The notes below the pieces were generated by a model. That model ran no database searches, was not told where the DNA came from, and saw only the letters and a list, made by a program, of their open reading frames with translations. DNA of 49,721 nucleotides, filler included, from Jimgerdemannia flammicorona (taxonomy: Eukaryota): the NCBI GenBank assembly GCA_003990765.1. It is 2 parts of 2 records of this genome, joined end to end, with 100 filler letters (N's around TTAATTAATTAA, not from the genome) between each part and the next. Parts side by side here need not be neighbours in the genome. Positions count along the whole stretch, not along the records: positions 1 to 24,819 come from RBNJ01000922.1; positions 24,920 to 49,721 come from RBNJ01000923.1. One strand, given 5' to 3'. How positions within the stretch are numbered: the stretch's first letter is position 1; every line of letters begins with the position of its first letter. The position numbers and the translations under genes were made by a program. Shown here in pieces: positions 2,058 to 49,721 of the stretch.

Positions 2058-2066
2058 CAGGTTAAT

Positions 2067-4600: not shown

Positions 4601-4609
4601 TTTGAAATC

Positions 4610-4627: not shown

Positions 4628-4629
4628 AA

Positions 4630-6082: not shown

Positions 6083-6560
6083 ATATATATCTCTCTTATT
6101 TTATAATATAGCTAAATTTAACTTTAAAAATAAAAGTTCAAAATAAAAATCAAAAAATAAAAAATAAAAAATAAAATAGAAATCAAAAAGTTAAATTTGC
6201 TATTATTATTTTTTTATTACAATTTTATAATAAAAATTGAGTTAAAAAAAAAATAAAAAAAATTTGTAATCAAATTTAGCTACAAAATACATAATTATAG
6301 AATAATAAATATATATTACTATATTATATTTTTAATATTATTTTTTATTTTTATTATAATAATAATAATAATATTTATTATATATTATCTATGATTTTAC
6401 TTTATTATTTGAATCAATTAATGAAAAGATTATTGAGATTTATAAATATAGTTATAATCTTAATATAATATATTAAATTATTTGATACTATTGTTTGTAA
6501 TTATATAATAATAATTAAATATATATCAATTAAGATTACATTTTTAATTTATAGTTACTT
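6083..6560. repeat. AT-rich low-complexity tract
   Basis: Almost entirely A/T, with AAAATA and TAA runs. Confidence 0.8.
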
Positions 6561-18126: not shown

Positions 18127-19190
18127 TGAATCAGAGGAAGGGTGTCCCAAGGAACCACACCCTAAAGAAAGCTCCTCAGACCATCAAAGCACAGGAAGAT
18201 CTTATCCAAAAAGAACATCAGAAAGCCCACCAAGGACAGACAAGCATAGAAGACAGAATTCGAAAACAATATCAACATTGGCCCCACCTCAGAACTCAAG
18301 TTTGGGACATCATTCAGAAATGTGACACCTGCCAGAAGTACCAAGGAAAGAAGAACTATCAAGCCCCTCTGCAACCAATTCCCCCACCTACTCACATCTT
18401 TCAAAGATGGGGAGTAGATGTAATTGGACCTCTACCAGTTACACTAAGAAGAAACAAATACATCCTTGTATTTGTAGAACATCTGACCAAGTGGCCCGAG
18501 GCTTTCCCAATAGAAATCACAGATGCCTTAACCATTGTAGGCCTCCTCCATGGACTCACACTCAGATATGGACCTCCAGAAGAACTCATCTCTGACCAAG
18601 GCACAGAATTCATCAACAATATAATCACAAGTTATGCCCAAATTCACAAGATCCACCTCAAAAAGACCACATCATACCACCCCCAGACCAATGGCATGAC
18701 AGAAAGAATGAACCAGACCATTAAGAAAGGACTTGCCTGAGTCAACCCTACTAATTGGGACCTCTGCTTACCTGAGATCCTGTGGGAAATTCGAAATACC
18801 CCTGCTACATCCACCAAACAAAAGCCATTCAAAATGATGTTTGCCAAGAAAACCAGAACTGCTGACCATGAGAATCTCAGAGACCTCCTCAAGAAGGCAG
18901 AACAGTTGCGAAATCAAGCCCAAGGACAGATTATCAAAGCCCAGGAAAGACAAAAGAAGTACTATAACCAAAAACAGAAAGATCAGGAGATCAAGATTGG
19001 AGATCAAGTCCTTGTCTGGAGAAGCATGATTGAGACAAACTTTGCTGCCAAACTAGAACCGAAATGGGAAGGACCTTACCTTGTACACAACATCAGAGGA
19101 ACCAGCATCTATTTAAGAAGCATGGATGGATGAACCCTGAGAACACCAGTATACATCAATTACCTTAAACTATATTTCCCCTCCACACCA
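18126..19190 (+). pseudogene. Integrase (HHCC, DDE core, GPY/F), no chromodomain
   Basis: HQKAH...CDTC, GVDVIGPLP, SDQGTEF, YHPQTNGMTER, KWEGPY. Confidence 0.92.
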
Positions 19191-19705
19191 TGAGCCAAAG
19201 GATTGATCAGCGCCTCCAGACATTGGTCCTCAGCTCCTTCCAAGCCCTACCTGTTCCTCTACCCCAATTCGGCCAAGCCAATGGAAGCCCCCTTCAAAGG
19301 ATCCAAGCTCATCAAGAAAATCTCACCTTGGCCAGACGCCTACTACAAGTCCACCAACTGCAGGCCTATTATGCAATCGGTGAACAGTTACAGAACCTCC
19401 CAGCCCCAGAACAAACCTATATCAGAAATACTACAGGTCTGATCAGAAGAGACACTACTGCTGCAGACAGACTATACACCATTTATAAACGAAATGTCAC
19501 AGCCCTGACACAGGCACAATTCTCCCTGAATGATATTCAAGGAATGAACCCTGTTACTTATCTGAGCATCATCAACTCTGTCGAAATCCTATTCCCTGAA
19601 GAAGAAGAAGAGCCCCTAGAATGGAGTAACCCCAGTACAGACAATGAAGATGATGGAACAGGTATAGATGCAGAAGCAGCCTATGCTTATTGGGATGATG
19701 ACTGA
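19190..19705 (+). CDS. Intact 171-aa accessory ORF3 of family A, unknown function
   Basis: ATG-to-stop ORF between integrase and PPT; helical core with QLQAYYAIG and an acidic tail; homologous to ORFs in families C and D. Confidence 0.8.
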   Translation: MSQRIDQRLQTLVLSSFQALPVPLPQFGQANGSPLQRIQAHQENLTLARRLLQVHQLQAYYAIGEQLQNLPAPEQTYIRNTTGLIRRDTTAADRLYTIYKRNVTALTQAQFSLNDIQGMNPVTYLSIINSVEILFPEEEEEPLEWSNPSTDNEDDGTGIDAEAAYAYWDDD

Positions 19706-19747
19706 AGAATAGTCTGGGACAGACTACCCTTCAGTGGGGGCTGATGA

Positions 19748-21277
19748 TGTGACAAGCCAAGACGTACCACCCGAATCATATCTTAACCAGATGACATGAA
19801 CAAGATGATGTGAACACTCAGCTTAGTAACCAGAAATCCTTGCTGCGGAAACTGTATAAATAGCCAGACATACCAGAAAGGGTCTGTTTACCTGTACAGA
19901 CTCTGTACACCATACAGACTCTGTATACTGTACAGGTCCTATACACTGTACAGACTCTGTACACCTACCATAAGTAGCAGATCTATAGTTAGCCACATAG
20001 TAACCAGATAGCAACCAACTTATATAACTTACCCCAGAGGTAAGAGTGAATAAAAACCTCAGTCTGAATTGAAGTGCAAACCAAAGAAGCCTCTAAAGAT
20101 TGAGCAATTGGTCCTCTTATTCCCACTCCAGTCCACTTTCTGATACAAAGAAGAGTTTGTTATGTTTTTGGTTCGCTTGCCAGATAAGCCTGAAGATTTG
20201 CCACCTAAGTTCAAGAAGAACTTCGCCGCCTTTCGAAGAGTAACCTGCCGCTTAAGGAATAAGCCACCATTTCCAAGTTATCCTCCGCCTTCCCAAGAAA
20301 GCCGCCTTGCTCAAGCCAGTTTCTGATGCAACTTCGCAGTGATCTGTCATGCAAACGAAGCCAGTCCTTAATGCAACTTTGCCAAGAGACCCTTTCCGAG
20401 CCACCCTCCCGTTTCCCAGTCAGAGCCCGCTGATTCAGGAAGAATCTGCGTCATCTGCCATTTTCAAGTTATCCGCATTCCCAGAAGAGCCCGATTTGAA
20501 ACCACTCGCACCATTCGAGTAGTATTCCCAGTTGGAGCCGAATCCACGCCATCCAAGTTGATTCTCAGTTAAGCCACTGTTTTCAAGAAGCCCGCCAAAT
20601 CCACATTGTCTGCCACTTTTGCATCATCCACCGTATTCCCAGTTGAAGCCGCCAACTCAGGAAGAATCTGCAACATCCGAGTTGTTCATTATTCCCAGTG
20701 AGCCCATTGCAGAGGAATCCTTGCCATACAATTCCCAGTGAGCCTGTTACAGAAGAACTCGCTGCCAGCATAATTCCTAGTGAAGCCTGCTGCTTTTGGA
20801 GAATCTGCACCAAATCAAGTTATCCGCCAAATTATCAGAACATCTGCATAAGGAACCTGTCACGCTACACAAAGAAATCGCCCACCACCCAAGAAGGAGA
20901 ACTGCTAAATTACCAGACCATCACGCACAGAGATTGTCATGCTATACAGAGATTGTCATGCAGAAATCGCATAAGGAGAACTGCTAGATTGCCAGACCAT
21001 CACACCCAGAGATTGCATACTTTTGGAGATCGTTATGCTACACAAATTGTACCATTCCCAGTTGACCCAAGAAGGAAGTCCATTCACACACAAATCGCTG
21101 CTACACCCAGAGAACCGTCCCAAAAAGGAAACCGCTCGCACAGTATCCAGATCATGACTATTATACCGCTAAACACTAAGAATATTTTGTTGCTTTTAAC
21201 AAAGTAACTGGGGGCTCAAGCCAAACTACATCAACCCCCAACCTTGTAATTTGCCTCTATTGAGCCGGCACATTACA
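19748..21277 (+). repeat. 3' LTR of family A (1530 bp)
   Basis: TGTGACA...CATTACA, preceded by the G-rich tract AGTGGGGG; TATA-like at ~20021 and AATAAA at ~20049. Confidence 0.93.
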
Positions 21278-21548
21278 CTAGTCACTAAATGTTCTGGAAA
21301 CTTGTAGAACTTTATTTGTCATCATTTGTCATTCTTGTCAAGAACTTTCCTCTTGATATTTTTCTTTGATTTCTCAGATCCTTTTTTCAGATCTTATATA
21401 AATATCCCCTCTGTTCTTATGAATAAAGCTCAGAATATTTTCTCTCAGAAATCCTTCAAGAATACTTGAATCCTTAAGTATCTCTTTGAGCTACTTAGAA
21501 CTACCAGAACTAGTCGCTTCCTTATTTAGAAACTAGAACCATTACACT

Positions 21549-21560
21549 TGGTAGCAGCAG
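21549..21560 (+). promoter_or_regulatory. PBS, initiator tRNA-Met type (family B)
   Basis: TGGTAGCAGCAG 2 nt after the LTR end; same sequence as the family D PBS. Confidence 0.75.
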
Positions 21561-22639
21561 TTAAGTTACACCTAGCCTTATCAAGATACCACTCAAGATA
21601 TCAGTTACAATACTATGGAGGACAACAAGTAGAACCCTTCATACAGTATCTATGGCCCAGGCAATGTCTCATACAATTGGCAAGAAGAAGAGGAACAGCA
21701 AAACCCTACTCAGTCAACTGGGGCCATTGAGAGTCTTTTGCAGACTGCATTAGCTCAGATTGCCCAACTTAAAGAATATATAGAAAGAAAGAAAAGCAAG
21801 GCCCCTGCTTATATCTCCACACCTCTACTGACATCAATATATCCAACAGTAGTTACTATCAAGCCTCAGAAACCTGATACTTTTGATGGTCAAAGAGGAG
21901 GACAATCTACAAACACCTGGCTTTTCCAATTAGAGCAATATGGAGAACTGACCAATTTGGAAGAAGCAACACTAGTCCAATTCGCTGCCACACTTCTCCA
22001 AGGAAATACTGTAATCTGGTGGCAAAACCATATCCAGAATACTAGATTCTCTGACTGGATCAGGGCCTGGAATGAATTCTCTGATACCATTCAAGGTCAA
22101 TTCAAACCAGTTAACAGCACCAAGGCTATGCAAGACTGTCTGGCAAATATCAAATAACTCAAGTCTGTGTAAGCATACAATGCACAATTTCTGTCAATCC
22201 TGTTAGAATTACTACATGTTACTGAAGATGAGAAGATCAACAAGTACATCTGAGGCCTGAAAGGTCAAACCTGAGTTTGTATTGAACTAGAAGAACCCAA
22301 GGACCTAGATACAGCAATGAAGATTGCTGATAGGTTTGATGTCATCACTTATAGCTTATAGTCACTACTTTGAACAGAAGAGATGCCTTTCAATAACAAC
22401 CACAAAAGGGAGGAACCCAAAGTCAGAACTGTTGGACCTGCCCCCATGGACCTAGACACCATTAATAAGAACAGGAAAGGTAAGCTTACATCTAAGAAAA
22501 AGGAGTGCCTCAAGAAGGCTGAAGTCTGCTTCTTTTGCCATCAGCCTGGTCACATTGCAACCAAATGTCTCAAGAAAACTACCAAACCAAAGAGGATTCT
22601 GGTCCTGTCCAAAGACACCCAAGGTCAACCAGTTGAATA

Positions 22640-23057
22640 AGAAGTTGTACTCAATTTCATATGGGTCAACCTCAAGGCCCAGATCTCTCAAGTACAGTCA
22701 GGAGTCATTGGTTTAAACCTTCAAGCAGTACAACAAGTCACTATTCCTGCACATGAAAGAAGACTCATTCCAACTGGCCTTTCAGTTGAAATCCCCAAGG
22801 AATATTATGCAAGAATTGCACTAAGATCTGGCCTCAGTTTCAAGCACTCATTGGATATTGGTGCTGGAGTCATTGATCCTGACTTCTGAGATGAAATACA
22901 AGTCCTGCTAGTTAACTACAAGAACCAACCATATACCATCAATGAAGGTGACAGAATTGCACAGCTCATTCTGGAGTAAGCCACCCTACCAGTCATCAAA
23001 GAAGTCACCAAGCTGTCTTCAACCAAGTGAGATCAGAAAGGCTTTGGCAGTACTGAC
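22640..23057 (+). pseudogene. dut: dUTPase domain, family B (between CCHC knuckle and protease)
   Basis: LIPTGLSVEIP, RIALRSGL, AGVIDPDF, GDRIAQLI, KGFGSTD. Confidence 0.92.
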
Positions 23058-24819
23058 AAAGTTGCAAGCATAGCCAAGAACTGAGCCAATTCAATGCTCA
23101 TTTTCAAAGATCTAGTCAAGGGACAAGAGCTAGATGTTCTTATAGACAGTGGAGCTATTGAAAACTTCATCAATAAGAACCTCATTAATAAGCTCAAGAT
23201 TCTCACCAAACTAGCTAGCAAGAATGGTGGAGTTGTTACTGCAGACAGTACCATCTTACCAATTGACTCAATTGCTGCTAAACTCCCTCTCAAGATCCAG
23301 AAGTACTGGGAATGTTTAGATTTCAAAGTAGTACCACTAGGAGACCATGATCTGATCCTAGACAAACCCTGGCTTATATGACATAACCCTCAGATTGATT
23401 GGATCAAGAATGAAGTCACCTTGATTTAGGATGGAGCCAATATTACCATCAAGCCAGACAAGACTCAGACAAGAACCCCAATTGCTACCCTTTCAGCAAT
23501 TCAGTTCAAGAAGACCCTCAAGAAAGCTACCTGTGCCTTTGTGGTACTGATCCGACCAAAGAAAGAAGACAAGAAGCTATTAATTAGTAAAAGCATCAAA
23601 TTACTGCTAAACAAGTACAAAGATGTCTTCTCAGACAAACTACCTGGTCTACTACCTTCAAGAGACCATGACTATGAAATCAAGTTGGTATCTGATACAG
23701 CTATACCTAAGAAGAAAATGTACCACATATCCCTACTTAAAATTGAAGCAGTCAAGAAAGAACTCAATGAACTCATTGAGCAAGGAGCCATTTAGCCAAG
23801 CAAGTCACCCTTTGGCTCCCCAGTCCTATTTGTCAAGAAAAAGGATGATACTCTGCAAATGTACATAGACTACCAAGCACTCAACAAGATTACAGTCAAG
23901 AACCATTATCTGCTACTACTTATAGATCAAATCTTTGATACTCTCAAAAATGCAAAGTACTTCACCAAGATTGATCTCACCTCTGGGTATTACCAAATTC
24001 GAATCAAGTCAGAAGACATACCCAAGACTGCCTTCATGATACTCTTCAGACTCTATGAATTCCTAGTTATGGCCTTTGGTCTCACCAATATACCAGTAAC
24101 CTTTCAAGATCTCATGCAAACTGTCTTTAAGGATCAGCTCTATATCTTTGTACTTGTATATATTAATGATATCCTGATCTTCAGTAGCACTGAAGAAGAA
24201 CACCTCAAGCATATTAAACAAGTCCTCAAGATCCTCTGTGAGAACAAGCTCTACATATATTTAGTAAGTAATTCATCCAAATGCAACACAGATAACATTG
24301 CGATATTCTTTATCCCCTAAAAATCAGCCCAACCATGGAAGAACTGCAAGTTACTATATCACCAAACACTATTATAGTACGTGCATTCCTACGTCCGTAA
24401 ATTTCACATGAGTCGATGAGAGTTTCCGGGTGTCAGGCACACCAATTTGGGCTTACACTCAATCGTCTTCATACCAGGTTTCACTCCCTGTTTTGTACAC
24501 CTTGTGTATGTCAAGTTATGCGGGAATCCTCTGAGTGGCTTGCTCTAGATGTAAACGCCATCACTGGTGGCGTAAACAATCTTGCGTCATCAGAAAAATT
24601 TCCGGAATGCGATTTTACACCAGTGGCAGTTAATTAATAGAGGGTACGGGTTATCGGAGAAGGAAGACGGAGATTTAACAACTTTGTCGGCACCGCTGAT
24701 GGTGGGTGATGTCCCAAAAATGGCAAACTCATATTCGAGGCCACGTTGGCCAAGGCCGAGTAATACAACTGAAGCTTGAATGGGAACAAGTCGCTCTCTT
24801 TTTTTTTTTTTTTTTTTTT

Positions 24820-24919
24820 NNNNNNNNNNNNNNNNNNNNNNNNNNNNNNNNNNNNNNNNNNNNTTAATTAATTAANNNNNNNNNNNNNNNNNNNNNNNNN
24901 NNNNNNNNNNNNNNNNNNN
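24820..24919. other. Artificial scaffold gap or linker
   Basis: 44 N + TTAATTAATTAA (stops in all six frames) + 44 N, exactly 100 bp. Confidence 0.95.
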
Positions 24920-26103
24920 TTTATTTTACAGACTCAGAGTTCTGTAGATTTTATTAAAAGAGAACCTAGACTATATAGGTCAAAACCCTCCCTCACTACC
25001 TACCAGACATTACTCTTCCATTAACCTAGGCTACTAAATTGTCCTATAGTCCCACTATTCCTACTATGTATATCAGATATACCAACTCTCACTATATAGA
25101 CTAGACTTATCTGTTTATCAGAGCTAGATCATTTTGACTACATGTGAGAGCATACCTATATATTAGATCTAGCAATATTGAGACTGAATAAGGAATAGTT
25201 CTCTGAACTCCAAACAAAGGCTTGAGGCAAAGAAAAACCCCCCAACTAGCCAACAGAAGACAGAATAGATTCAGAGCAGATAAGTAAAAAACTTATATAT
25301 AGGACTCTCTCAAAAGGACTGATACATGAGCTAAGGCTTGAAAAAGTCCCACTCCCACTCCCTGAGCCTACAGGCCTCAATTATAATACTGTATCAGCTC
25401 CTGGTTCTAATCAGATACTGCTAAATAAGAGAGATCTCACTCTCCAAGCCTGTGGGCCTCAATTGTATTACTATGTCAGCTCCCAGTTCCAGTTAGATAT
25501 AGCCAGGATACTGGTCTCTGCACTACCCCACTCTCTACCAGCCAATCAAAAGGCCCTACTGAGATAATACTTACTCTAACCCTGATGACCCCTCAGCCTA
25601 ATACTCTACTGGTCTATCATTATTACTTTTCTGCCTATCTGTAATAGCCATCTTCTCTCTCATCCTAACTCTATCTGAAAAGTAATTACCTATGCTAGAA
25701 CTATGCTCACTAGAAAGCTCACCAAAGCATAGAGGGCCCCACTATAGGTACTAAGGACCTGCAGGTAACCTATACTAGTACTTGATGCCCAAGGTTGACT
25801 GACTCTATATATAGTCTGTGATATACCAGATAATATCTTGTTGATGATAACAAAAGGAATAAGGTGCCACACTAAAACAGATATACTCCAGATATAGTCA
25901 AAGATACTAGAAATATTGAAAAAGTAAAGAAGACACCAATCTGACACTGATAAAAGGGCAACTCATCACTATTATCTCTCTCCTATTATGCTCTTACAAG
26001 AACAGCAAACTAATCTAAGATAGAGAGGATAATAATAGGAGAAAGGAGACTTGGAAGGTCACCTACCAAATCTTATAACCAGTAAGATAGCAGAGAAAGG
26101 AGA
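24920..26103 (-). mobile_element. Non-coding poly(A) retroposon, copy 2 (more mutated)
   Basis: Colinear with copy 1 from ACAGACTC to AGCAGAGAAAG; abuts the family C integrase end. Confidence 0.85.
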
Positions 26104-31664: not shown

Positions 31665-32317
31665 ATAGATAAATATATTTAAATTAAAAAAATAATAATA
31701 ATTAAAAATATATATTATAATTTAAACTCTCTTTATTATCTTTTATTTTATTATTTTTATACTTTTTACTATTTTTATAAAGTTTTTTTTTATTATTTTT
31801 CTTTACTATCTTTACTATTTTTATCTTTTTACTATTTTCAAATTAAAAAAATAATAATAATTTTATAATTTAAACTTTTATTAAAATCTTCTTTATTATC
31901 TTTATTAAGATCTCTTTTCTCTATTTACTTTTTACTATCTTTATCTTCTTTATTATCTTTACTCTATTTATTATCTTTTTTTTACTATCTTTACTCTCTT
32001 TATAATTTCTTTACTATCCTTATTCTATCTTTATTAAGATACTTTTTTATAATTATAATTAATTTTTTTAAAAAATATATATATATTTAATATAAAATTA
32101 TCTAATATTATTTAAAAATCTCCATTATCTCTATAAAAATATATATAGAAATTTTATGTAATTTAATATAGAGCTTTACATACTAAAGATAAATAGATTT
32201 TTAAATTTAGAAGTTTTTATATTCAAGTTTCTATAGTGACTGCTTTTCTTTATCTTAGTTTCAATTTCTTCTAATATATCTAAAATGTGTCCAACTTTAA
32301 AAGAATAGAACTCTTAT
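31665..32317. repeat. AT-rich low-complexity spacer between the two family C copies
   Basis: Degenerate TTTACTATC/TTTATTATC repeats. Confidence 0.75.
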
Positions 32318-34849: not shown

Positions 34850-35245
34850 TTGGAAAATCTACTTTAATATAGTTCTACCAGAATATAAGTCAGAAAATAC
34901 ATATCACTATAGTAGAAGAAACTATACTAGAGCCCCAGACAACTATCCTGCTTGTAACTAGTTTAGAAATAACCATTCAAAGGACTATATCAAGATCCTC
35001 AAGATAAGAAGCAGTCTGGCTAAGAGTGAGATTACTATTGAAGGGGAAGTTATTGATTCAGACTATATTGGAGAAATACTACTTATTGCTAGAAACTACA
35101 ACTCTATGATTCTATTTCCAATCAAGAAGAAAGACTGATTGGTGCAGATATTGATCTTCTTAGTTCTTTAGCCAAGGATCATAGAAGTTAAGAAGTTGGA
35201 AAAAATGGAAAGAGAAAGAAAAGAATTCAGATCTACTAGAAGAGG
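34850..35245 (+). pseudogene. dut: dUTPase relic, family C (between protease and RT)
   Basis: RSSLAKSEITIEGEVIDSDYIGEI and LVQI; the matching copy lies at ~28640-29040 (-). Confidence 0.8.
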
Positions 35246-38131
35246 AGTATTTGTCAATATCAAGATTATAGAACTAGATTACAAGAAGGAGGAAACTACA
35301 AATAAGCATAGCTACACTATCAGAAATGAATTCCTACTCAAGAAAGAACTTAAGAAGATACTCTGTAAATTTAAAAATATTAAGAGAAAGACTCCACACT
35401 ACTATTATGATATAGATATAGGAGATACCAAATCAATCTATCAAAAAGTAAGACCAATTCTGCCAGCCTATCACAAATAGCTTAGAGAAGAAATCAAGCA
35501 GATAGAAGAAGCTGGTATCATTAAAGAAGTAAGTAGTTCTTGGGCTTCACTAGTCATATTGACTTCTAAAAAAGAAAGCAAACTAGAAGAATTTACTCCA
35601 AGGCTCTATACCAATTACAGGAAGCTCAATCTGGCTACAAAGAAGAATTACCAACTACTGCCCCTTATCAGTGACATTCTTATAACTCTGAGAGATAAAG
35701 TACAATACTACAGTACCTTGGATTTATATATAAGATTCTACCAAATTGGTCTCACTGAAGCAGTAAGTAAAAAATCAGCCTTCATTACTCCAGATAGAAC
35801 CTATGTCTATCTATAAATAATATTTAGAATATACAATATACTAGCAAGCTTTCAGTAAATGATAAACAAAATCTTTTACTATAATATAGAAAGATGGATA
35901 ATAGTTTATATAGATAATATTATCATCTGTAGTAAGATAGTCAAAGAACATCTGCAGCATATCTAGCAGATGATGAAAAGGCTAAAAAAGCATAGTTTAT
36001 ATATCAAGTCCAAGAAGTGTAAGTTTGTAGAAATTGAGATCTCCTATCTTGATCACATCATTAACTGAGATAGAATACATATAGACCTACTCAAGATCTA
36101 AACAGTAGCAGTATATCCAAGGCCCACCACTATCACTGAAGTCTAAGCCTTCATGAGACTTACCTCATACTACTGTAGATTTATCAGAGAATTCTCTAAT
36201 ATTGCAGGCCCAATCTATAAACTCAACAAAAAAAATATCAAGTTCTAATAAACTAATAAACAATAGAAAGTATTTGATGAGCTCAAGATTAGACTAACCT
36301 AAGCACCTATCCTTAGAAGACCTAATTGGACTCAAGAATTCATCCTGTAGACAGATATAAGTACTCAAGAACTAGGAGCTATCCTGGCTCAAAAGAAAGA
36401 TAAAGTAGAATATATCATTATATATCTTAGCCAAGGAATCTGAGGAGCTGAAAAGGAGTATGAATTCTATAAGTTAGAATGTCTTGTAGTTATCTGGGCT
36501 ATAGAGAAGTTTTACTACTATCTTGCAGAAAGATACTTCACTATTCAGACAGACTACTTCACTCTTACTTAGCTGCTAACCACTGAATAACCTAAAGGAA
36601 TTTATACTAGATGGATTATGAAGTTGTAAGCCTATGATATAACTATTATATACTGCTCTGAAAGAACTAATATTAATATAAATACTCTCTTACAGATATT
36701 TTAAAGGACTCTCAACCAATAAATCAATTATGAATATAGAACTCTACTATAGAATTATCACCTATCTGAGACAGCAAAATATGTCTCAATATCTAGAAGA
36801 ATGAATACAAATAATTATCAATAGAATATAAAAACAATTTAAGATCAATAGAGAAATACTAAAGAAAGAAAAGCTACTAGTTATACCTGAATATAAGAAG
36901 GAGCAAGCAATGAAATCAATATATGAACTCAGCTATCTAGAAGAAACAAATACCTATAATAAAACAAGAAGAACAATGTGGTAGTCAGAAATAGAGAAAG
37001 ACATTCAAGACCTGTAATAAATATCAGAAACAGAAACAAGACCAGCAAAATCAGACCTTAGGATCAGTATATATAGAACTAGTACTCTTTGTATACATTA
37101 TAATAGATGTAATTAGCCCTCTACTCTTGACTTTGACTGACAACTAATATATCATTATTATTGTAGACCTTTTTATAAAATAGATAGAGATAGAATCTCT
37201 CAAAGAAACCAATGCACAGTTAATCACCAATTTCTTTTATAAAGAAATCATCTGCTGATTCAAGATCTCAGTATAAGTAACTACAGATAGAGGAATAGAA
37301 TTTATAAACCAGTTCTTCAAGATTCTCTACAAGAAGTACAAGATCCAGTATATTTGGACTACAGCCTATCACTCTCAGAGAAATGAATAAGCAGAAAGAA
37401 CAAACAAGACTCTTAAGAATATCATCACTAAGATCTGTAATAACTATAAAAACTAGGAACACTATCAGCTAATAGTATTATCTGCTCTTCAGGATATTCA
37501 ATTACCAAGTACCTATTTTATCTCTCAAGAGATGCTGTTCAGAGAAGAAAGTTCTCAAGGAATCTTATTATCTAATAGAGATACTGTATGAAAACATATA
37601 GATATAAAGATATGGAGACTATACTAAATCAGAAAAAAGGCTGAGGATTATATAATCAAAGTACAGATACTATAACAGAATAATATAGAAAAGACTCACA
37701 AGCCTCTGGAGATTATTAGGATAGGAGACAAAGTCCTAGTATATCAGAATATGGTAGAAGCTTCATGGTTATGAAAACTGAGATCTAAGTAGGAAGGACC
37801 TTACCTTGTGTAAGATATAAAAGGAATTACCTTTTGGCTATAAAAACTCTCAGATATAATCATCTCCACTATCATTTACTAAAACTGACTTAAGAAGTAT
37901 CATGACTAGTCAATGAAATATAGCCATAGCCCTCAAGATTACTGGTACTATACAATAAGTCATAGAAAGACAATAGTATACTATCAAGCCACTCATGATA
38001 GAGAAATTCTTCAACAGCATCCAAAGTATAGTACAGATATATCTGTCATAAATTTCATACTTCAAGATCTACCAGAATTAGACCGAGCTTCAAGAATACT
38101 TTAAATTAGGATAGCTACTGAATTCACAGCC

Positions 38132-40201
38132 TGTAAGTGCACAACCTCCAAGCCACTGAAATTACATGTCACCCTCTGAACAAGCTACTTAAATTACACG
38201 CGACCTCTGAACAAATCTGGAAATCACCTGCTTGATCACAAAGCTGAGTCAAACCGAAGTCACAGCATACAAAGCTGAGTCAATATGAAGTCATGGAACA
38301 CAAGATTTACACAAACAGAATCTTACCAATCAGGACCAAATGTATATACCGAGCACCGAGATGCGTCGAATCAGAGAATCAAAACAAACAACAACTATAA
38401 CTTCCAAACACACAAACATGATCACTGAGATCTACAACTATATCTGCATGGACATTTGGAATGCCATTGTCAACCGAGCCACACCCCCTCTGCCCCTCAT
38501 GAATATCCATAGCCTGGCACCCCTCTACTTCATGGAAGCCTGATGGAACGCCCTGAACATGCTTAGCGAGGCCCACCGAATCAGACAAATCTCAAGCTAC
38601 TACCAGATCAGCCACCTCCTGGAAGACATGGTCGAACACTACCATGATATAGACATTACCCAGATGTCTCAACACCAGAAGCTCATCGCCCGCAAACATC
38701 GAGAACTCTTCTACAAGTACAGTACCTTTATTCCCCACCTCTGAGTCACTACCAGTGAAATGGTTGCTACCCTGTCCTATGGCCAAATCAATGACATGAT
38801 ATAAGAACTCAACCACAAGTGCCTTGAATACATCTAGACCACAGACAGAACCTTTCCGTACCCTGATGACTATATCCTGCAAATGCCTCAAGTCAGATAT
38901 GCCATGAAGGATATCTACGATATAATCCACTTCGACGAAGATGAAGCAGAAGACAATGATTCCTCTGACGCCAACATGACCTCTAGCCAAGGATCTCTGC
39001 CAACCCTGATCACACTGCCAAACTTGCCGATGAACTTGCAACAGTTCATAACTACATACGAGACTTATTGGGACAATGACCACTGACATGAATACAAACC
39101 TGTGTTCACTCCTGATTACTTCAACTACAATGAAGAGACCAGAGAACACAACCTGTACCTCCAGACAACTCTTGAGATTGAACCAACCACTCCACCACCT
39201 GAGTATGAGTGATATGAACCACAGCCACCAGCTTACTATAATCCTGCAACTCATAGTGCTGTAACCTATAGAAGGTATGCAAACAGTGAATCCGATGAAA
39301 GTGAAGACAATACACCCATCCTTCACCCACCAACACCTTATCCAGCCTACGAGACAGACGATGCTATCCTGTGGGATGGAGATGAAGTTCCAATGTACTA
39401 TTACCTCAGCAAATAAGGAGAAGTAATCCGCGAACCATTATTCCTAGATAACTACTTCATCAGAGATGATGCAATCAATGGTGATGTCATCGAGGACTAC
39501 CCAGACAGTGTCTAAACCCATAAATAACCTAGCAGTCATAGTATAGTTAGATTAGCCTTGTACAACGTGACTGTAAACTAACTCAGCTGTCAGACGATCT
39601 CTTGACATATCAGATCACACTTGTACTATGTGACTGCATTCTGACTCAGCAAAGCATTTAGTGCTACATCCATATCTAGCATAGTCCAGATAGCCCCTCA
39701 CTAGTATAAATACCCCCTCCCCCAGACCTCAGAATCTTAGACTGGAACAGACTCAAACACACAAGAACATTCCTGAATACTTCCCCATAATACCCCTTCA
39801 CACAACTACTCCTAGTATAGCAATATCATGAATAGCGAATAAACCTATTTGATAACCTACAAATCACTCTTAAGTAAACCCACTCCCTGTTAGGTCCCAC
39901 TCCTAACTCTGTCACAAAATTTCCTAATTGGGTATTGTCTGCAGTGATATACCAATTCAACTAAGCTGGTCTTAGTTTCTTGAACTTCCTGAAATATGGA
40001 AAATCCTGAACATCCAGAACTAGTCCAAAAAGGGACTTTGGTTGAGACATCAATCTGATCTTGAAATCAATAAGCATAGTGGATATACTCTATACGAAAT
40101 TGATCTTAACCATAAAAAAATAGTCTTCCAGAATATCCAGAACTTCCAGAAAACCCTTCCAGAACTACGTAACAGTTACTCTAAAAAGTAACCCTCTTAC
40201 A
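38132..40201 (+). repeat. 5' LTR of family D (2070 bp)
   Basis: Direct repeat of 46720-48791; TATAAA 39705-39710, AATAAA 39838-39843. Confidence 0.96.
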
Positions 40202-40204
40202 ACT

Positions 40205-40216
40205 TGGTAGCAGCAG
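40205..40216 (+). promoter_or_regulatory. PBS, initiator tRNA-Met type (family D)
   Basis: TGGTAGCAGCAG 3 nt after the LTR end. Confidence 0.75.
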
Positions 40217-42229
40217 TTTACAATCCAATTCCGCTTCAAGACACTTCCTCACCTCACTACAAACCCTTCTGAGAATTCCTACAAGTTGGTATAAAGCCCA
40301 ACCTCTGAACTGGAATTTATCCTGAACCATCTGACAATCTAGAGAGAATTGAACCTGACGTACAAGGACAATTTGACCTCCACACCTGCAACAAGTGGGA
40401 CAAACTTCATTCAAAGAAAGAAATACTCCAGTTAAATCAGCAAATAGGCGAAACCCTATTCACTGAACTCCTTGCACTACACCCAGCAAGTCAAGACAAA
40501 GAAGGTCTTATTGAAGCCTTCTTTACTCTTCTCAATAAGAGTTTTGTCAGCTCCACAAATCCGAGCAACCTAGGACAACCAGCAGCAGTCTTTCTAGCCT
40601 TAGTTTCTCATGAAGCCCAAGCCTCTGTAGCCAAGTGGCTCAACTCTACCGACTTTCACTGCACCAGGACCAAGACTGCCTTATACTACCGATTCCAGAA
40701 CAGCAAGGCCCGCCATATCCTTAAAGAAGAAGCAAGAGAAACCCTTCATCAACTACCTGACCCTGAACCTGAAGCAGGCCCTGCTACAGCCCTACCTGAA
40801 TCTGAAACCAACACTGAACCTGAACTTGACTTTGAATTAAGTCCATCTGAAATCAGATATACAACTGATTCTGTCTACTTTGACACCGAGCAAACCCAAT
40901 TACACGGGGACCAAACCAAAGAAGAGGAGGAGTATCTTACCAAATTCAATCCCGGATACACTACTGAAGGAGACACACGTCCATCAGGACAGAATACACC
41001 TATATAGCAACAAACAGCTATCTATCAAGCCCTCACTCCAGACCCACAACTACTACTCCAGCAGCTTACATAGACCCAAAGAACTCCATTACACTCTGCA
41101 CCAGTACCTCAAGTAGTACCAGTAACACTACTACTAGCAGTCCAACTGCCTCCAGCAATCAACATGGTGAACCAACAGATTCTTGATCTCACAGCCCAAG
41201 TAGCTATAATGGCAGCAACTATCACTGCCTTAGCTAAACAGACCCGACCTACCAAAAATCTAAGCCTACCTACCTTCAATGGCACTGCACAAGAAGTCCA
41301 AAGCTTTATTAGTGTAGTTGACACCAACTTCAAAGCCAATCAATGGACTAATGAGCAAGTTGCTGACCATATTCTGACAAACAATCAAGACCACACCCTG
41401 GAACAACTCTTTGCTACCACTACAGCCTATGTCTGCCGAGTTGTCACATTCTTCCGAGGACCTGCCGAAGAATGGTGGTGAACCCTTCCTGAAAAACCCC
41501 TCACATGGGATACCTGACCTATAGTAGTTGCTCAGAATGCAGCAAACAATGCCCCAGGATACAGAGCCCATCCTGCAGCCCCTGGACTCAAACAACTCAT
41601 GATTGCTCAATATCGCAGCAAAATAATAATTGCCGAATCTCGAGTAAAACTCCACAACCTCAAATTTGATATACATGGCAAGGAAGAATTCGAAACCTTC
41701 TGTACAAAACTCAAGTCACTCCTGAACACTGTTGGCCTAGGATACATTGCCAATGATGAAGCACGAAATGGTACAAGAGCAGACCACTTATTTGATGCCC
41801 TGCCTGAATGGCTTACTAGAAAAATCTGAGAACAAGGCCGCCCAGTTAGTTGTAATCACCAACAATGGTGCCTGGTAAGAATCAAGACCATGGTTAAGCG
41901 AATCCTAACAGCTGGACCAATTCTGCTCTGAAGACAATTTAAACAAGGAAAGGACTTGGACCAAGAAAGAAGAACCCAAGCATGAAGCATTCCAAGCTCC
42001 CTCCACATCCACCTCTTGGACACCCAGAAATCATGAACCCACCCAGCCAAGTACCTTCAAGAAACTTACTGAAGGCGAAAGAAATGAACTTTGAAGAAGC
42101 AGAGCATGCTTCTATTGCCGAAAGACAGGATACATGGCCAGTGCCTGCCCTAACCGGAAACCCTGAACAGCAACCCAAGCAACTGTCACCACTCTGCACC
42201 ACCTCAACAACCTGACCACCAGAACACTA

Positions 42230-42635
42230 GACTTTGTCAAGTTAAGACAAACTGCTAAGGCCCCAACCAAAGAAAGTCAAAAAGCAGCTGGATATGACCT
42301 GTATACAGCCAAAGAAGCTACAGTTTCTAACCGAGAAGTCAAACAAGTCTATATAGGAATCAGTATCCAAATCCCTGAAGGACATGTTGGAAGAATATGC
42401 TGTCACAGCAGCCTAGCACTGAAAGGACTCTCAGTAGAAGGAGGAGTCATTGACAAAGATTATACAAGTGAAATCATTGTCCTCATTCGAAACCACAGTT
42501 GGACACCCTTCAAGATCCCTATTGGTTTCTGCATTGCCCAGATCCTATTCGAAAAAATCGAGTCAACCCTGACAGTCAAGGAAGTCCCTGAACTACTGCC
42601 CACCATCCAAGGATCCAAAGGATTTGGCTCATCAA
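42230..42635 (+). pseudogene. dut: dUTPase domain, family D (between CCHC knuckle and protease)
   Basis: AAGYDL, SSLALKG, GGVIDKDYTSEI, IAQI, GSKGFGSS; in frame with gag and protease. Confidence 0.93.
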
Positions 42636-45600
42636 ACAAGGCCCCAGCCCAACCTATCATGAGCAAAGAAGAACAATTCTACAAGAAGATAGAAGATGGA
42701 TATGTACCAAGTGGCCAATGCCCTCATAGTATTGGAATGTACTCTTCCCGAATGATTGATAATTGCTTCTCTTGTGTCAACGAACTGGCTCAAAGAAGAA
42801 CCAACAGAAGAAAGACTCCTACAACTGAAATCACCAGCATTGGATCAGACAAACTGCTCACCCTTAAGGCTTTTGTCAATGGAGCACCTGTCAAGATTAT
42901 GATAGACAGTGGTGCCTCAGGCAACTTCATCAATGAAGAGACAGCCAACAGACTCAAGGTCTTCACCTCTCCAGTACAGCAAACTCAAGCAGTTGTCACA
43001 GCTGATGGAACCTCACATGTCATCAGCAAAGAAGTCCGCAATCTACTCTTCCGAATTGGTGACTACCAAGTACATATTACCCTCCAGATCGTACCACTCC
43101 CTGACAATGAAATCATCCTTGGGACTCCATGGTTAAAGCAAGAGAACCCCATGATTGATTGGGTAAACCATTCTCTGACCATCAAGAAAGGATGCCATAA
43201 CTTCAAACTACAAGGCAAAAAGGACTCACTCAACTCTGGTAACTCTGGACCAAAGATCACCCACATCAACAAGCTACAACTCAAGAAATTGGCCAAGAAA
43301 TACCCTCTCTTTGCCATCTCCATCCGACCATCCAAAGAAGAACCCGAGAACTCTGAAGAAGATTTTTCCAAAGTTGACAGCCATGTCAGACCACTACTCC
43401 AGAAATTCCAAGACATATTTCCAAAAAAGCTCCCGAAAGGCCTACCTCCCAAACAAGCAGTAGACCATGCAATCAAGACTATCCCAGATGCCAAACCAGC
43501 CTTCAAGTCAATCTACCACATGTCTCTGAGAGAAATCGATGTACTCAAGAAAGAAATCGACGAACTCCTAGAATAAGGATTCATCAGACCCAGTGTATCA
43601 CCCTATGGTGCACCCATCCTCTTTGTTGTTAAGAAAGGAGGAGACCTGCGAATGTGCATTGACTACTGAGATCTCAATGAACAGACCATCAAGAACTGTT
43701 GCCCACTATCGAGGATTGATGAAATATTCGATAGGCTCACCAACCCACAATTTATGAGCTCTTTTGACCTGTGAAATGGTTACTGGCAAATTGCCATGAA
43801 AGAAGAAGACATTTACAAGACAGCTTTCCAAACTCGCTATGGACACTTTGAGTTCCTGGTTATGCCCTTTGGCTTAACTAATGCTCCAGCAACCTTCCAG
43901 ACATTGATGAATATCATTCTGCATCCATACCTGGATAAATTTGTTGTTGTCTATATTGACGACATCCTAGTCTTCAGCAAAACCCTGGAGGAACATCTTG
44001 AACACCTTGAACTAGTACTACTGAAACTCCGAAAAAACCGACTCTTTGCAAAACTCAGCAAGTGCGAATTTCTTCTGAAAGAAATTCAATTCCTTGGACA
44101 CATTGTCACTCCAAATAGAATCAAAGTAGACCCTAGTAAAATCTCTGCAATCAAAGATTGGCCTAGACCAAAGAAGCTGAAAGACCTCCAGTCATTCCTA
44201 GGATTAGCAAACTATTACAGGCGATTTGTTGCCAACTTTGCTAAAATCGCTACCGCCCTCACCCAAATGACCAAGCACAGCAAGAAACAAGAACAACCTT
44301 GGACCATGAAACAAGAGAAAGACTTCAACAATCTTGTAAATTGGGGAAACGAACAAGATACTACCTTTCAAGTACTGAAAGATGCCCTGATAACCACTCC
44401 AGTACTTCAAGCGGCAAACCCTGCCCTACCATATGAAGTCACCACTGATGTCTCTGATCTAGCTCTTGGAGCAGTGCTCATGCAAGAAGAACACCCTGTG
44501 GCCTATCACTCCCATAAGTTCAATGATGCCAAAATCAACTATGCAACTCATGAGAAGGAAATGCTAGCCATCGTAGATACTCTGATCAAATGGCGACCAT
44601 ATCTAGAAGAAGTATACTTCACTGTATTGACCGACCACAAGTCATTAGTCAACATCAAGGCACAGGCTACCCTTTCCTGAAAGCAAGCTAGATAGATAAA
44701 AGTCCTCACCAACTTTGACTACGAAATCCAATACTGCCCTGGCAAGGAAAATATTGTTGCTGATGCAATCTCCAGACCACCAATCGAAGAGGTTATCCAA
44801 ACTCTGACCTTGGTTACCAACACTATCATGGAACAAATCATTGCAGCATGTGTTGATAATAAAGAAGCTCAAGCACTCCAAGAAATCCTGAACAATGGTG
44901 ATACTGACAAGCATACCCGGTACAATCAATACCAACTTAAGGACAATGCTATCTACTACAAGGACAGATTGTATGTTCCAAACAACTGAGACCTCTGAAG
45001 GACCATCCTATTCGAATGTCATGATGCCCCTACAGCTGGATATTTAGGATTTGATAAATGTTATAAAGTTATCTCTCAAAACTTCTATTGGCCCCGCATA
45101 GCAGATCAGCTCAAAACCTACATCACTTTCTGTAATGCCTGCCAACGAAACAAGTCCTCAACACTAGCAAAACCTGGCTTACTTCACCCTATCCCAGTAC
45201 CATCCGCAAATTGGGAACAAATCTCTATGGACTTCATTATACAACTACCCCAAACCAAGAATGGAAAAGATACAATTGTTGTCTTTGTGGACTATCTCAG
45301 CAAACAAGCCCACTTTGTACCTACTACCACTACTGCAACAGCACCAGATATAGCCACACTCTTGTTTGACAATATCTTTCGCTATCATGGTCTTCCTAAG
45401 ATCATTATTAGTGACCAAGATCTGAAGTTCACCAGCCATTTTTGGAAAGCCCTCTATGCACACCTTGGAACGAAACTTGCACTATCCACAGCCTTTCACC
45501 CTGAAACTGATGGCCAAACCGAAAGAATGAACTGAACTCTGGAACAAATGCTAAGGAACTATGTCTCCTACAGACAAGATGATTGGCATGAACATCTCAC

Positions 45601-46124
45601 CACAGTTGAGTTTGCCTACAACAATAGCAAGCAAGCCTCTCTTAGAATGACCCCATTCTTCGCCAACACTGGACAAAATCCAAACACCCCATTGACACTT
45701 ATCTGAACCACTGAAGAACTCTCCACAGTCGAAGCTATTGAAGAATTCTTACTCCAAATGTGCAATTTAAGCCAGATTGCTATTGAGAATTTATCGTGAG
45801 CTCAGGAACAACAATCACAGTATGTTAACCAACATCACCGAGAAGAAACTTTTGATATTGGAGAAAAAGTCCTACTAGACATCAGAGGATACCGAGTTGA
45901 CAACCTCAAGCACAGACTATCTACTAAGCTGAACAGCAAGTTCATTGGACCATTTGAAGTCATTGCACAAGTCTCTCCAATCTCCTACAAACTGGCACTA
46001 CCAGACACCATTAAGATTCACCCAGTCTTTAATGTTCAATGTCTCAAGCAATACAATGAGAATGATGATGAGCTATTTCCAAACCGGACCACCAAACCAC
46101 CTGCACCTATCATTATTAATAACC

Positions 46125-46294
46125 AAGAAGAGTATGAAGTTGAACAAATCCTCAACAAATGTGGCAACAAGAACCATCCTGAGTACCTTGTCAAATGGAA
46201 AGGTTACCTGATCCATAATGCAACCTGGGAACCCAAGACCAATCTCCAGAATGCTACCGACCTAGTTCAGAAATATGATTCCTTGAACAACTAG
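46125..46294 (+). other. Chromodomain at the integrase C-terminus
   Basis: EEYEVEQILNK...EYLVKWKGY..NATWEPKTNL. Confidence 0.92.
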
Positions 46295-46719
46295 AGCCAA
46301 ATACTCTGCACCTATCCATACATACTATATATTACCCTTCTGAACATTATAACTATCACAAACCAAGTCAAGAACTCAGCAAAATAAGATAAGAATACCG
46401 AATCTCTGGAAAAATAGCAAAACTGAAAGCAAGCCTATTCTCTCTGTACCACTGGTGGGAAATAAGACATAGACATTTAAGAAGATTCCTTAGAGGAAAT
46501 TCTCCAGCAGTGAATGACGTCAGAATCACTTCTGATGCATAGCATTGAACACATGACCCTTTAACATGTGAATCCAATGCATTAGGCAACTGTACCACGA
46601 GCATACCACTTTCTGAGAAAATGGACCTTACCAGACTTTTGACCTCCCAAATGGTATAACAACACTAGAACAAATTAGAAGGCCCCGATGAGGATGTTGA
46701 AAGCTAAGAAGGGGAGAGT

Positions 46720-48791
46720 TGTAAGCACACAACCTCCAAGCCACCGAAATTACATGTTACCCTCTGAACAAGCCACTGAAATCACATGTGACCTCTGAAC
46801 AAATCTGGAAATCACCTGCTTGATTATAAAGCTGAGTCAAACCGAAGTCACAGCACACAAAGCTGAGTCAATACGAAGTCATAGAACACAAGATTTACAT
46901 AAATGGAATCTTACCAATCAGGACCAAATGCATATATACCGAGCACTGAGATGCATCGAATCAGAGAACCAAAACAAATAATAACTACAACTTCCAAACA
47001 CACAAATATGACTACTGAGATCTACAACCATATCCACGTGGACATTTGGAATGCCATTGTCAACCGAGCCACATCTCCTCTGCCCCTCATGAATATCCAT
47101 AGCCTGGTACCCCTCTACTTCGTGGAAGCCCGATGGAATGCCCTGAACATGCTTAGCGAGGCCCACCGAATCAGACAAATCTCAAGCTACTATCAGATTG
47201 GCCGCCTCCTGGAAGACATGGTCGAACACCACCATAATACAGACATTACCCAGATGTCTCAACACCAGAAGCTCATCGCCTGCAAACATCGAGAACTCTT
47301 CTATGAGTACAGTACCTTTATTCCCTGCCTCCGAGTCACTACCAGCGAAATGGTTGCTACCCTGTCCTACGGCCAAATCAATGATATGATACAAGAACTC
47401 AACCACAAGTACCTCAAATACATCCAGACTACAGACAGAACCTTCCCACACCCTGATGACCATATCCTGCAAATGCCTCAAGTCAGATATGCCATGAAGG
47501 ACATCTACAATATAATCCACTTTGATGAAAATGAAGCAGAAGACAATGATCCCTCTGACACCAACATGACCTCTAGCCAAGGATCTCTGCCAACCCTGAT
47601 CACACCGCCAAACTTGCTAATAAACTTGCAACAATTCATAACTGCATACGAGACTTATTGGGACAATGACTACTGGTATGAATACAAACCCGCGTTCACC
47701 TCTGATTACTTCAACTACAATGAAGAGACCGAAGAACACAACCTGTACCTCCAGACAACCCTCGAGATTGAACCAACCACTCCACCACCTGAGTACGAGT
47801 GATATGAACCACAGCCGCCAGCTTACTACAATCCTGTAACTCATAGTGCTGTAACCTATAGAAGGTATGCAGATAGTGAATCTGATGAAAGCGAAGACAA
47901 TACACCCATCCTTCGCCCACCAACACCTTATCCAGCCTACAAGACAGACAATGCTATCCTGTGGGATAGAGACGAAGTTCCAATGTACTATTACCTCAGT
48001 GAACAAGGAGAAGTAATCTGCGAACTATTATTCCTAGACGACTACTTTATCAGAGATGATGCAATCAATGGTGATGTCATCGAGGACTACCCAGACAGCG
48101 CCTAAACCCATAAATAGCCTAGCAGTCATAGTATAGTTAGATTAGCCTTGTACAATGTGACTGTGAACTGACTCAGCAGTCAGACGATCTCTTGACATGT
48201 CAGATCACACTTGTACTACGTGACTGCATTCCGACTCAGCAAAGCATTTAGTGCTACATCCATATCTAGCATAGTCCAGATAGTCCCTCACTAGTATAAA
48301 TACCCCCTCCCCCAGACCTCAGAATCTCAGACTGGAACAGACTCGAACACACAAGAACATTCCTGAATACTTCCCCACAATACCCCTTCACACAACTACT
48401 CCTAGTATAGCAATATCATAAATAGCAAATAAACCTATTTGATAACCTACAAACCACTCTTAAGTAAACCCACTCCCTGTTAGGTCCCACTCCTAACCCT
48501 ATCACGAAATTTCCTAATTGGGTATTGTCTGTAGTGATACACCAATTCAACTAAGCTGGTCTTAGTTTCTTGAACTTCCTGAAATATGGAAAATCCTGAA
48601 CATCCAGAACTAGTCCAAAAAGAGACTTTGGTTGAGACATCAACCTGATCTTGAAATCAATAAGCGTAGAGGACGTACTCTATACAAAATTGATCGTGAC
48701 CATAAAAAAATAGTCTTCCAGAATATCCAGAACATCCAGAAAACCCTTCCAGAACTACGTAATGGTTATCCTAAAAAGTAACCCTCTTACA
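46720..48791 (+). repeat. 3' LTR of family D (2072 bp)
   Basis: Preceded by PPT AAGAAGGGGAGAG (46706-46718); TATAAA 48295-48300, AATAAA 48428-48433. Confidence 0.96.
46903..48105 (+). CDS. LTR(U3)-encoded accessory ORF of family D; 299 aa to TGA at 47802, then 100 more open codons
   Basis: Lies inside the LTR, upstream of the TATA box; a stop-interrupted duplicate is at ~38310-39515. ATG 46951 is shared by both LTRs and is the likelier start. Confidence 0.8.
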
Positions 48792-49721
48792 CAGCCAGTG
48801 ATGGGAAAAGAAGATTGGATCAGAGAGTATTAGCTCTTTCACACTCAGATTACTATTGTGAAATAAGTATATAAGTTATTTAAGGAGAATGAACCAGCCC
48901 TAGCTCACTTTTGAGAAGTAGTTTCAGGAGACTTTGCATAAGTCAGAAGATATTATTGGGAGAATATGATGATATAGATTGCATAGTATAAGAAGATACA
49001 GCTTATAGAGGCTTAAAAGTTTGAGTGAATAGGATATTTCAGAGATGAATCACTTATTCAGAAGAAAGTTGTCATGAATCAGAGGAATAGACATTTGATT
49101 ATAGCACAAATGTAGAAACTTTACATTCTACAGATGTAGAATCTTAATGATCATAGAGATTTCACAGATATAGAAAATCTATACTTATAGAAAATAACTC
49201 ACAGAAAACATAATCATAACTTAACTACCTTATAGCTAGCAAACTTGTATAAATATCTCCAATATCTAGAGTGAATAAACCTTAGATTGAAATAGTTTAA
49301 AGCAAAGAGAAAGCAAGAGAACTAGTAAGCCTGTGGGCAGATACACTTTGAACTCATCCACTCCTGTATCCTGAGAACTCTGTGGAGTTAAAGAAGATCA
49401 AGTTTTCAAGATACAGAAATCCAATGCACTTACACAGTATGCAGTGTATAAATAAAAAAAGGAAATTGTAACTTTGTATAAAAGAACTATAAAACATAGT
49501 TACAACGGAATTTTGCAAATATCTTTTCTTGTTTCTATATCAATCGTGGCGCAGCGTAGCAGTGTTGTCAACTCGATGCTGTCAAATTGTGTGATAGAAG
49601 CCATAAGCTAGCGGCCTGCGGACCTAACTATTGAACACATATTCGATGCATTGCGTATGTGCAAATTTCGAGATGCATGGCCGATCAAGGGAGTGAATTG
49701 CAGAGCGTCCAACGCAACACA

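Follow-up and report, generated by a model that had tools for sequence, protein, structure and literature searches.

Does one family of accessory protein recur at the 3' ends of different Ty3/Gypsy long terminal repeat (LTR) retrotransposons? The question is raised by a stretch of DNA of Jimgerdemannia flammicorona (GenBank assembly GCA_003990765.1), 49,721 nucleotides long with filler included and joined from parts of records RBNJ01000922.1 and RBNJ01000923.1; the whole of this stretch is called the window. It is made up of nested Ty3/Gypsy elements, referred to as families A, B, C and D, and its DNA is AT-rich and transition-mutated. An earlier note on the window had proposed that a gene after pol in family A (ORF3), a decayed ORF3 in family C and an open reading frame (ORF) in the LTR of family D encode one selected and exchangeable accessory protein. 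Kinship was found to be clear for A and C and is probable for D (profile E 0.013; hhalign probability below 8%). The observation was thus confirmed, and its interpretation is upheld in part. Accessory genes of LTR retrotransposons are a known phenomenon, to which ORF3 adds a new protein family.

ORF3 of families A and C

The features of the first copy of family A are as follows. RT, RH and IN stand for reverse transcriptase, RNase H and integrase, and PR, below, for protease.

15735-21277: A copy 1, 3' half; RT piece 15735-16004, RT-RH-IN 17218-19133, ORF3 19190-19705, 3' LTR about 19741-21277
17218..19193, plus strand: 3' part of A pol (RT-RNase H-integrase, without chromodomain), from Pfam and the comparison with the pol of locus L001
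19190..19705, plus strand: A ORF3, intact, 171 amino acids (aa) plus stop; stop-to-stop frame 19169-19705
19741..21277, plus strand: A 3' LTR, about 1.54 kb, with the purine-rich AGTGGGGG just before it; matches the 5' LTR of A copy 2

A ORF3 was placed inside the element because it ends 36 bp before the 3' LTR. Its ATG (19190-19192) overlaps the stop codon of the family's pol (TGA, 19191-19193) in the sequence ATGA; the pol in the window has a premature TGA at 19131. Seven relatives of A ORF3 with open frames have 60-82% identity, and searching 1.84 billion proteins exhaustively with the profile added four more; all 11, like the other relatives of the window's proteins in the protein collections, are metagenome proteins. 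At the greatest distance stands P0013, of 168 aa and 25% identity (E 2.5e-4 over the 1.84 billion proteins), which keeps the length of A ORF3, its proline-rich turn, the motif QLKQYFAIG and the acidic tail.

Selection was assessed by comparison with L001, the sole locus from the locus scan with alignment A1. This element is A-like and intact, and it comprises dUTPase, RT, integrase and ORF3 as far as codon 82. Between the window and L001 the nonsynonymous (dN) and synonymous (dS) divergences were 0.096 and 1.01 for RT, and 0.070 and 0.67 for integrase. Over 86 codons of ORF3 the differences numbered 32/16/51 at codon positions 1/2/3 (dN 0.32, dS saturated), and 51 of the 86 residues were identical. 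The observed substitutions were then redistributed at random, 5000 times, over sites that hold the same base, which gave a mean of 30.3 identical residues and a maximum of 41; the observed number was reached in 0/5000 permutations. This shows that purifying selection acts on ORF3 of the A type, a real gene, and to that extent the proposal of a selected protein is borne out.

The protein begins with Met and a short helix, followed by a PLP-like turn near residue 23, a long helix up to the motif Q-[LI]-x-x-Y-[YF]-x-[IL]-G (around residue 60), further helices to about residue 135 and a tail that is strongly acidic, contains aromatic residues and is probably disordered. In A the helical N-terminal part of ~135 aa is basic (isoelectric point 9.6), and the 36-aa tail holds 15 D/E and 0 K/R. 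The best structure model of A had a predicted local distance difference test score (pLDDT) of 73.9 and was helical to residue 134 (helices 7-18, 34-68, 86-117 and 121-134), with a disordered tail thereafter; the other four models scored 43-48. Residues D6, Q10, P21, P25, G32, I38, N44, L45, Q53, L57 and R79 are nearly invariant and, as far as the alignment indicates, form no recognisable catalytic motif.

Searches for known domains and folds agreed with the statement of the earlier note that no domain is recognised. Nothing above the Pfam cut-off was obtained for A, D, P0001, P0005, P0010, P0013 or P0002, and no family at E <=0.1 reached the cut-off. The PDB sequence search gave a best E of 0.25 for the A profile and no match for D. 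With Foldseek the A model, which is of moderate confidence, had 0 matches to PDB at E <=0.001 and 0 to BFVD. The ESM Atlas yielded no usable match for A and matches for D that were all <=0.85, and the A profile had no match in IMG/VR. The Kyte-Doolittle mean over 19 residues peaked at 0.91 in A and at 1.03 in D, which indicates no membrane segment, and no Env family in Pfam matched the A or D proteins. Since it has no membrane segment the ORF3 protein is not Env, as had been held before.

Family C is heavily decayed, and its ORF3 is interrupted by the insertion of D.

37902..38131, plus strand: C ORF3 remnant, first part, decayed, with stops; starts at ATG 37902, in overlap with the stop codon of pol (TAG, 37907-37909)
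48797..49069, plus strand: C ORF3 remnant, second part, beyond the D insertion; the C 3' LTR is next
32433-32766 and 49108-49438 (both approximate): C 5' LTR and 3' LTR, about 0.33 kb, heavily decayed
26103-31601, inverted: second copy of C, ending short of ORF3

The string ELQEYFKLG*LL, which had been placed at the position matching A, lies at 38085-38111, immediately before the D 5' LTR, and VYKLFKENEPAL lies at 48867-48902, immediately after the D 3' LTR. C ORF3 was rebuilt by removing D by coordinates, after which both blocks stood in one register with A, almost gap-free. The second block had been aligned across all three families; it holds for C, and D fits it only after a shift of two residues. 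Against the A-family profile the rebuilt C sequence scored 17.4 bits, a value reached by 0/5000 shuffles (reversed sequence, 0.4), and the Smith-Waterman score of A against C was reached by 1/2000 shuffles. By these alignments C ORF3 is a clear relative of A ORF3. Common ancestry of the two fits, because they share both their organisation, a sense-strand gene directly after pol with a stop/start overlap that D does not have, and the order of their pol domains. This order is PR-dUTPase-RT-RH-IN without chromodomain in A, and C has the same (PR-dUTPase, without chromodomain). The families had been said to differ in domain order and chromodomain. That is true of D (and B) and not of A against C, so that the 'three different families' come down to about two architectures.

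The ORF in the LTR of family D

38132..48791, plus strand: D, a complete chromovirus inside C ORF3; LTRs 38132-40201 and 46720-48791
47008..48105, plus strand: D LTR ORF in the 3' LTR, with 365 codons when counted from the conserved Met; between stops the frame is open from 46903
38418..39515, plus strand: D LTR ORF, 5' LTR copy, 7 internal stops including the shared TGA
48295..48302, plus strand: TATAAATA (TATA box) in the D LTR, 190 bp past the ORF stop

The LTRs of D are 2072 bp long and 93% identical, with TG..CA ends and a target duplication of CAGCC. A tRNA-type primer-binding site lies at about 40204-40216 and a polypurine tract (PPT) at about 46706-46718, and the pol order is dUTPase-PR-RT-RH-IN-chromodomain. 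The ORF starts 288 bp past the LTR start and 714 bp past the pol stop, and so lies wholly within the 2.07-kb LTR without a stop/start overlap with pol. It was placed in U3 because TATAAATA lies 3' of it. In two runs guessed to be RNA, contigs become about 100 times deeper at about 48330 and beyond, which hints weakly that R starts there; no RNA run was listed as containing the D LTR. Lying in U3, the ORF is carried into both LTRs with every insertion, and it is still the 3'-most ORF of the genomic RNA, like ORF3 in A and C.

The 3' copy has an in-frame TGA at 47800-47802 that is common to both LTR copies. The TGA thus predates the insertion, and the element inserted with a shortened ORF. In P0001, which is 67% identical to the D ORF, 247 codons are open with a sense codon at the window's TGA, and the frame runs on to the same C-terminus. 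The tail of the D ORF has 44 D/E and 32 W/Y/F in 214 residues. The D LTR is highly repeated in a soil-metagenome run, with 3510 related contigs. When JGI metagenome contigs and IMG/VR were searched with the D protein, pattern matches alone came up and no relative. The variant sites listed for the D ORF, 27 in number, fall 9/3/15 at the codon positions, and this pattern was considered as a sign of selection and rejected: the two LTR copies of D, a neutral pair, differ at 35/15/35, a mutational bias.

Just 5' of the ORF a TATAAAG occurs at 46825-46831, and a twice-repeated GCTGAGTCAA..CGAAGTCA unit lies within 46825-46882. Its TGAGTCA cores (46833-46839 and 46864-46870) we take to resemble AP-1/Gcn4-type sites. 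By its motifs the segment 46825-46882 could be an LTR enhancer or the promoter of the D ORF.

Similarity of this ORF to A ORF3 was examined at several levels. BLASTP of A ORF3 against the D LTR ORF (46903-47802) gave one ungapped match of 48 aa with 13 identities (19256-19399 against 47077-47220; 27.3 bits, pairwise E 1e-4), in accordance with the ungapped alignment reported before. The string then quoted for D is that of the relative P0009; the 3' LTR copy has C for R, and the 5' copy keeps R and has K for E. In tblastx of the A ORF3 region against the six window frames D was the best non-trivial match (E 0.004-0.006). The A-D Smith-Waterman score was reached by 2/2000 shuffles, and the score of D against the A-family profile (8.8 bits) by 2/5000. 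When the A profile was run against the 325 window ORFs of at least 50 aa, the two D copies came first among the 324 others (9.4 bits, E 0.013; 7.0 bits, E 0.073). Addition of C to the profile raised D to 12.8 bits (E 0.0012), and on the 400-residue D read-through the score was 12.1 bits, reached by 1/5000 shuffles.

With C in the profile, the alignment begins with profile position 1 on Met 36 of D, which is the start of P0009 (89% identical). The spacing from Met to PLP to YYxIG agrees within one residue between A and D, and the layout of Met, PLP-like turn, Y-[YF]-x-[IL]-G and acidic tail is present in A, in P0013, in D from Met 36 and, as far as decay allows, in C. Helices predicted for D from Met 36 (1-21, 34-54, 61-76, 85-115 and 121-140; a poor model, pLDDT 33.6) run parallel to those of A. 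We regard it as likely that the D LTR ORF belongs to the ORF3 family.

Descent, exchange and function of ORF3

On balance, and by a modest preference, the best explanation overall is that ORF3 is a previously undescribed, non-enzymatic accessory protein of fungal-type Ty3/Gypsy elements. In A and C it would be translated by termination-reinitiation at the pol overlap, or from a subgenomic RNA. Its helical part would bind a partner or nucleic acid, and its acidic, aromatic tail would recruit host machinery. In D a shift of the PPT upstream of the gene would have taken the gene into U3. Narrower readings of function are held much more loosely. The one we favour, on the composition of the protein, is that of a regulatory or chromatin adaptor, in the first place a transactivator-like factor acting on the LTR of its own element; it is conceivable and yet rather unlikely, and an anti-silencing role appears improbable. 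It is also quite unlikely that fungal Gypsy lineages as deeply separated as these (RT identity 31-37%) have one ancient regulatory gene in common, which recombination can swap and which D carries in U3. Such elements would be complex retrotransposons with a transactivator or anti-silencing factor of their own, a fungal counterpart of foamy-virus Tas.

Exchange of ORF3 is seen among A-like elements. Over the last 420 bases of integrase the DNA of A in the window is 0.73-0.95 identical to that of L001, and from the start of ORF3 on it is 0.48-0.67 identical, a fall from about 0.9 to about 0.6 with the break at 19130-19180. L001 and P0006 have 37/41 residues in common just upstream of ORF3 and 48/83 within it, while the window and P0006 share 90/116 and L001 and P0005 share 81/83. 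Since identity drops at the ORF3 border, two ORF3 subtypes (~60% identical) are joined to near-identical pol ends, and ORF3 has been swapped as a module between A-like elements.

Between the deep families core ORF3 identity is 26-27%, about the same as that of integrase (27-28%), and this fits plain vertical descent. The claim that the gene is exchangeable is thus upheld within the A lineage and not between deep families. A serious contender, falling a little short of an even chance, is accordingly worded as follows: all three genes are homologous by vertical descent from an old Gypsy ancestor with ORF3, no exchange took place between families, and the PPT moved in D. It overlaps the explanation preferred above and differs from it only on inter-family exchange. 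The ORF3 core (13/48 for A-D, about 13/50 for A-C) is as conserved as integrase and slightly less so than RT (31-37%), and the position after pol is retained. Against it, recombination at the border does occur between A-like elements, which makes transfer mechanistically easy, and B, the sister of D (RT 52-53%), has lost its 3' end in the N gap.

Another explanation confines ORF3 to one lineage (A and C); the D LTR ORF would then be unrelated, and the 48-aa resemblance would be due to chance and to helical and acidic composition. We judge this unlikely. It gains from the ORF lying in U3, being twice as long and having no pol stop/start overlap, and from three results that also weigh against the preferred explanation. 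The hhalign probability for A-D was 7.6% and 3.9%, and the A-D link is weak by database standards. Among the 6 matches at E <=0.001 in the A-profile search of the 1.84 billion proteins there was no D-like protein. The direct Smith-Waterman score of C against D was reached by 401/2000 shuffles and is not significant. Further points stand against the preferred explanation itself. The AlphaFold model of D failed (pLDDT 33.6), so that no A-D fold comparison was possible, and the structure of A is itself shaky, one of five models being confident. Insertion of D with a shortened ORF means that the last 100 residues were not needed in cis, and the neutral pair of D LTRs already has a second-position deficit. 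As to function, the transactivator idea was drawn from composition alone, namely the acidic, aromatic-rich tail. What speaks for relationship is the rank of the two D copies in the window, the rise in score once C was in the profile, the start of the alignment at the conserved Met with the Met-PLP-YYxIG spacing kept, and the shuffles that reached the score in 2/2000, 2/5000 and 1/5000 cases. Should the membership of D fail, a lineage-specific ORF3 of modest interest would remain.

It has also to be asked if ORF3 is a C-terminal extension of Pol made by -1 ribosomal frameshifting, which we hold to be improbable. ORF3 does lie in the -1 frame of pol, and this frame is open over the last ~45 pol codons in L001 and P0006, where it starts with ATG (MGRTIPC...). 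In the window a single stop, which lies 7 codons ahead of the ATG, interrupts the same frame (L001 3699-3855; window 19046-19168). The start M-x-Q-R-I-D is found in 8 of the 11 sequences that cover the N-terminus (the window and 7/10 database relatives), and the overlap is different in C. The upstream open frame could belong to an ORF3 isoform of greater length, or could simply follow from the conservation of pol.

That these genes are mere remnants in decay, with no function today, is very improbable and largely refuted for A: the window is a graveyard of transition-mutated copies, the first 120 codons of C ORF3 have 9 stops, and D inserted with a TGA and has 7 stops in its 5' copy, but the permutation test rejects neutrality for A ORF3 (0/5000), 11 relatives are open, one of them at 25% identity, and P0001 is open over 247 codons at 67% identity.

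Neighbouring elements and known systems

Two further features of the window are listed here.

1..6090, minus strand: A copy 2, 5' half, continuing beyond the window edge; 5' LTR, gag, PR 2654-2376, dUTPase 1061-681
21633-24819: B, pol order dUTPase-PR; 3' end lost in the N gap, LTR not seen

A copy 2 was identified by tblastn with pieces of L001 (60-87% identity) and by Pfam. Its 5' LTR runs from 4630 to about 6065 on the minus strand and matches 19966-21277. The latter segment had been a candidate for a family B LTR and was rejected as such, being the A 3' LTR. Past the 5' LTR and ahead of the gag region that can be recognised, D (40309-41007, plus strand) and A (3973-4590, minus strand) each have a long open frame without a Pfam match, that of A being acidic and proline-rich; these frames are possibly N-terminal gag extensions.

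The RT of A copy 1 is interrupted by a 1.35-kb insertion. This LTR-like unit, at about 15880-17236, has the MPFGLC codons duplicated at both of its ends. A decayed, AT-rich copy of it occupies 24920-26105, directly after the N gaps 24820-24863 and 24876-24919. The segment 25250-25567 (tblastx E 0.52) was tried as a fourth relative of ORF3 and rejected: its profile score of 1.7 bits was reached by 102/5000 shuffles, and it is part of the 1.2-1.35 kb LTR-like unit, of which the better-kept copy has no such ORF.

By RT identity B and D are sisters (52-53%), every other pair of families being 31-37% identical. The dUTPase follows the protease in A and C and precedes it in B and D. The dUTPase/protease regions are 681-2654 (minus), 22641-23378 (plus), 42167-43573 (plus), 28731-29033 (minus) and 34153-34479 (plus). 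Varying placement of dUTPase in fungal Gypsy elements is mentioned in the accessible text of PMC2864245, and Gypsy elements that carry a dUTPase are on record from basidiomycetes and Tuber (passages of PMC5408684 and PMC2864245). Taken by themselves, the dUTPase within pol, the chromodomain of one family and the RIP-like decay of the copies would point to a fungal host, perhaps a basidiomycete.

Decay in the window is nearly all by transitions. They account for 138/143 differences between the two D LTRs (38132-40201 against 46720-48791) and for 586/640 between the C copies (26103-29567 against 34327-37770). In the D LTRs the affected C mostly precedes G (43) or A (47); in the C copies the CpG context is gone and CpA is dominant (251). 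The pattern is like that of repeat-induced point mutation, or methylation-driven.

To our knowledge few extra genes of LTR retrotransposons outside env have an assigned function, and in fungi they are barely described. Closest in function would be the accessory genes of retroviruses that are situated in U3 of the 3' LTR or reach into it, such as sag of mouse mammary tumour virus (MMTV), bel/tas of foamy viruses and nef of lentiviruses. The D ORF is like sag, tas and nef in placement, being the 3'-most gene of the genomic RNA and in U3. Foamy-virus Tas has a C-terminal acidic activation region, and MMTV Sag is a membrane glycoprotein. The Pfam, PDB and fold searches revealed no likeness of ORF3 to retroviral accessory proteins in either sequence or fold, and unlike Sag the protein is without a membrane segment.

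Of other added genes, brtn is reportedly antisense, to go by the title of Zhao et al. 2011, whereas those of the window are sense-strand genes. It belongs to the Boty-like elements of Botrytis cinerea and is a gene added to a fungal Gypsy element, as cited in part of PMC8365987. The closest printed phenomenon, as far as the consulted portion of the source goes, is that of bdelloid rotifers, in whose LTR retrotransposons the same type of ORF3 is found in different retroelement lineages, a modular sharing of genes (Rodriguez, Kenefick and Arkhipova 2017, PMC5408684). According to the same portion the rotifer genes are also extra ORFs after pol, in elements with dUTPase. They encode a paramyxovirus-like fusion protein, a GDSL esterase/lipase, a DEDDy exonuclease or membrane segments (PMC5408684), and ORF3 of the window is without any of these. 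It differs further from the rotifer systems in its fungus-like host and in that one carrier probably has the gene within the LTR. Fungal Gypsy elements drawn with an 'add. ORF' of unknown function appear in the Figure 3 legend of Novikova et al. 2010 (PMC2864245). By that legend, on which alone the comparison was made, these too are Ty3/Gypsy elements of fungi with dUTPase at varying positions and an extra ORF. The literature searches, which lay outside the figures and supplements of PMC2864245, found no paper describing the ORF3 protein.

ORF3 is a clean case of such a gene: a small family without recognised domain, with purifying selection, a breakpoint at its border and probably a second mode of carriage, in U3. 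Carriage in U3 would probably mean that each new LTR takes a copy of the gene along. If ORF3 does act in the regulation of transcription or in counter-silencing, fungal retrotransposons would carry regulatory genes as complex retroviruses do, and the gene would offer a handle on how elements survive in genomes that heavily mutate their repeats.

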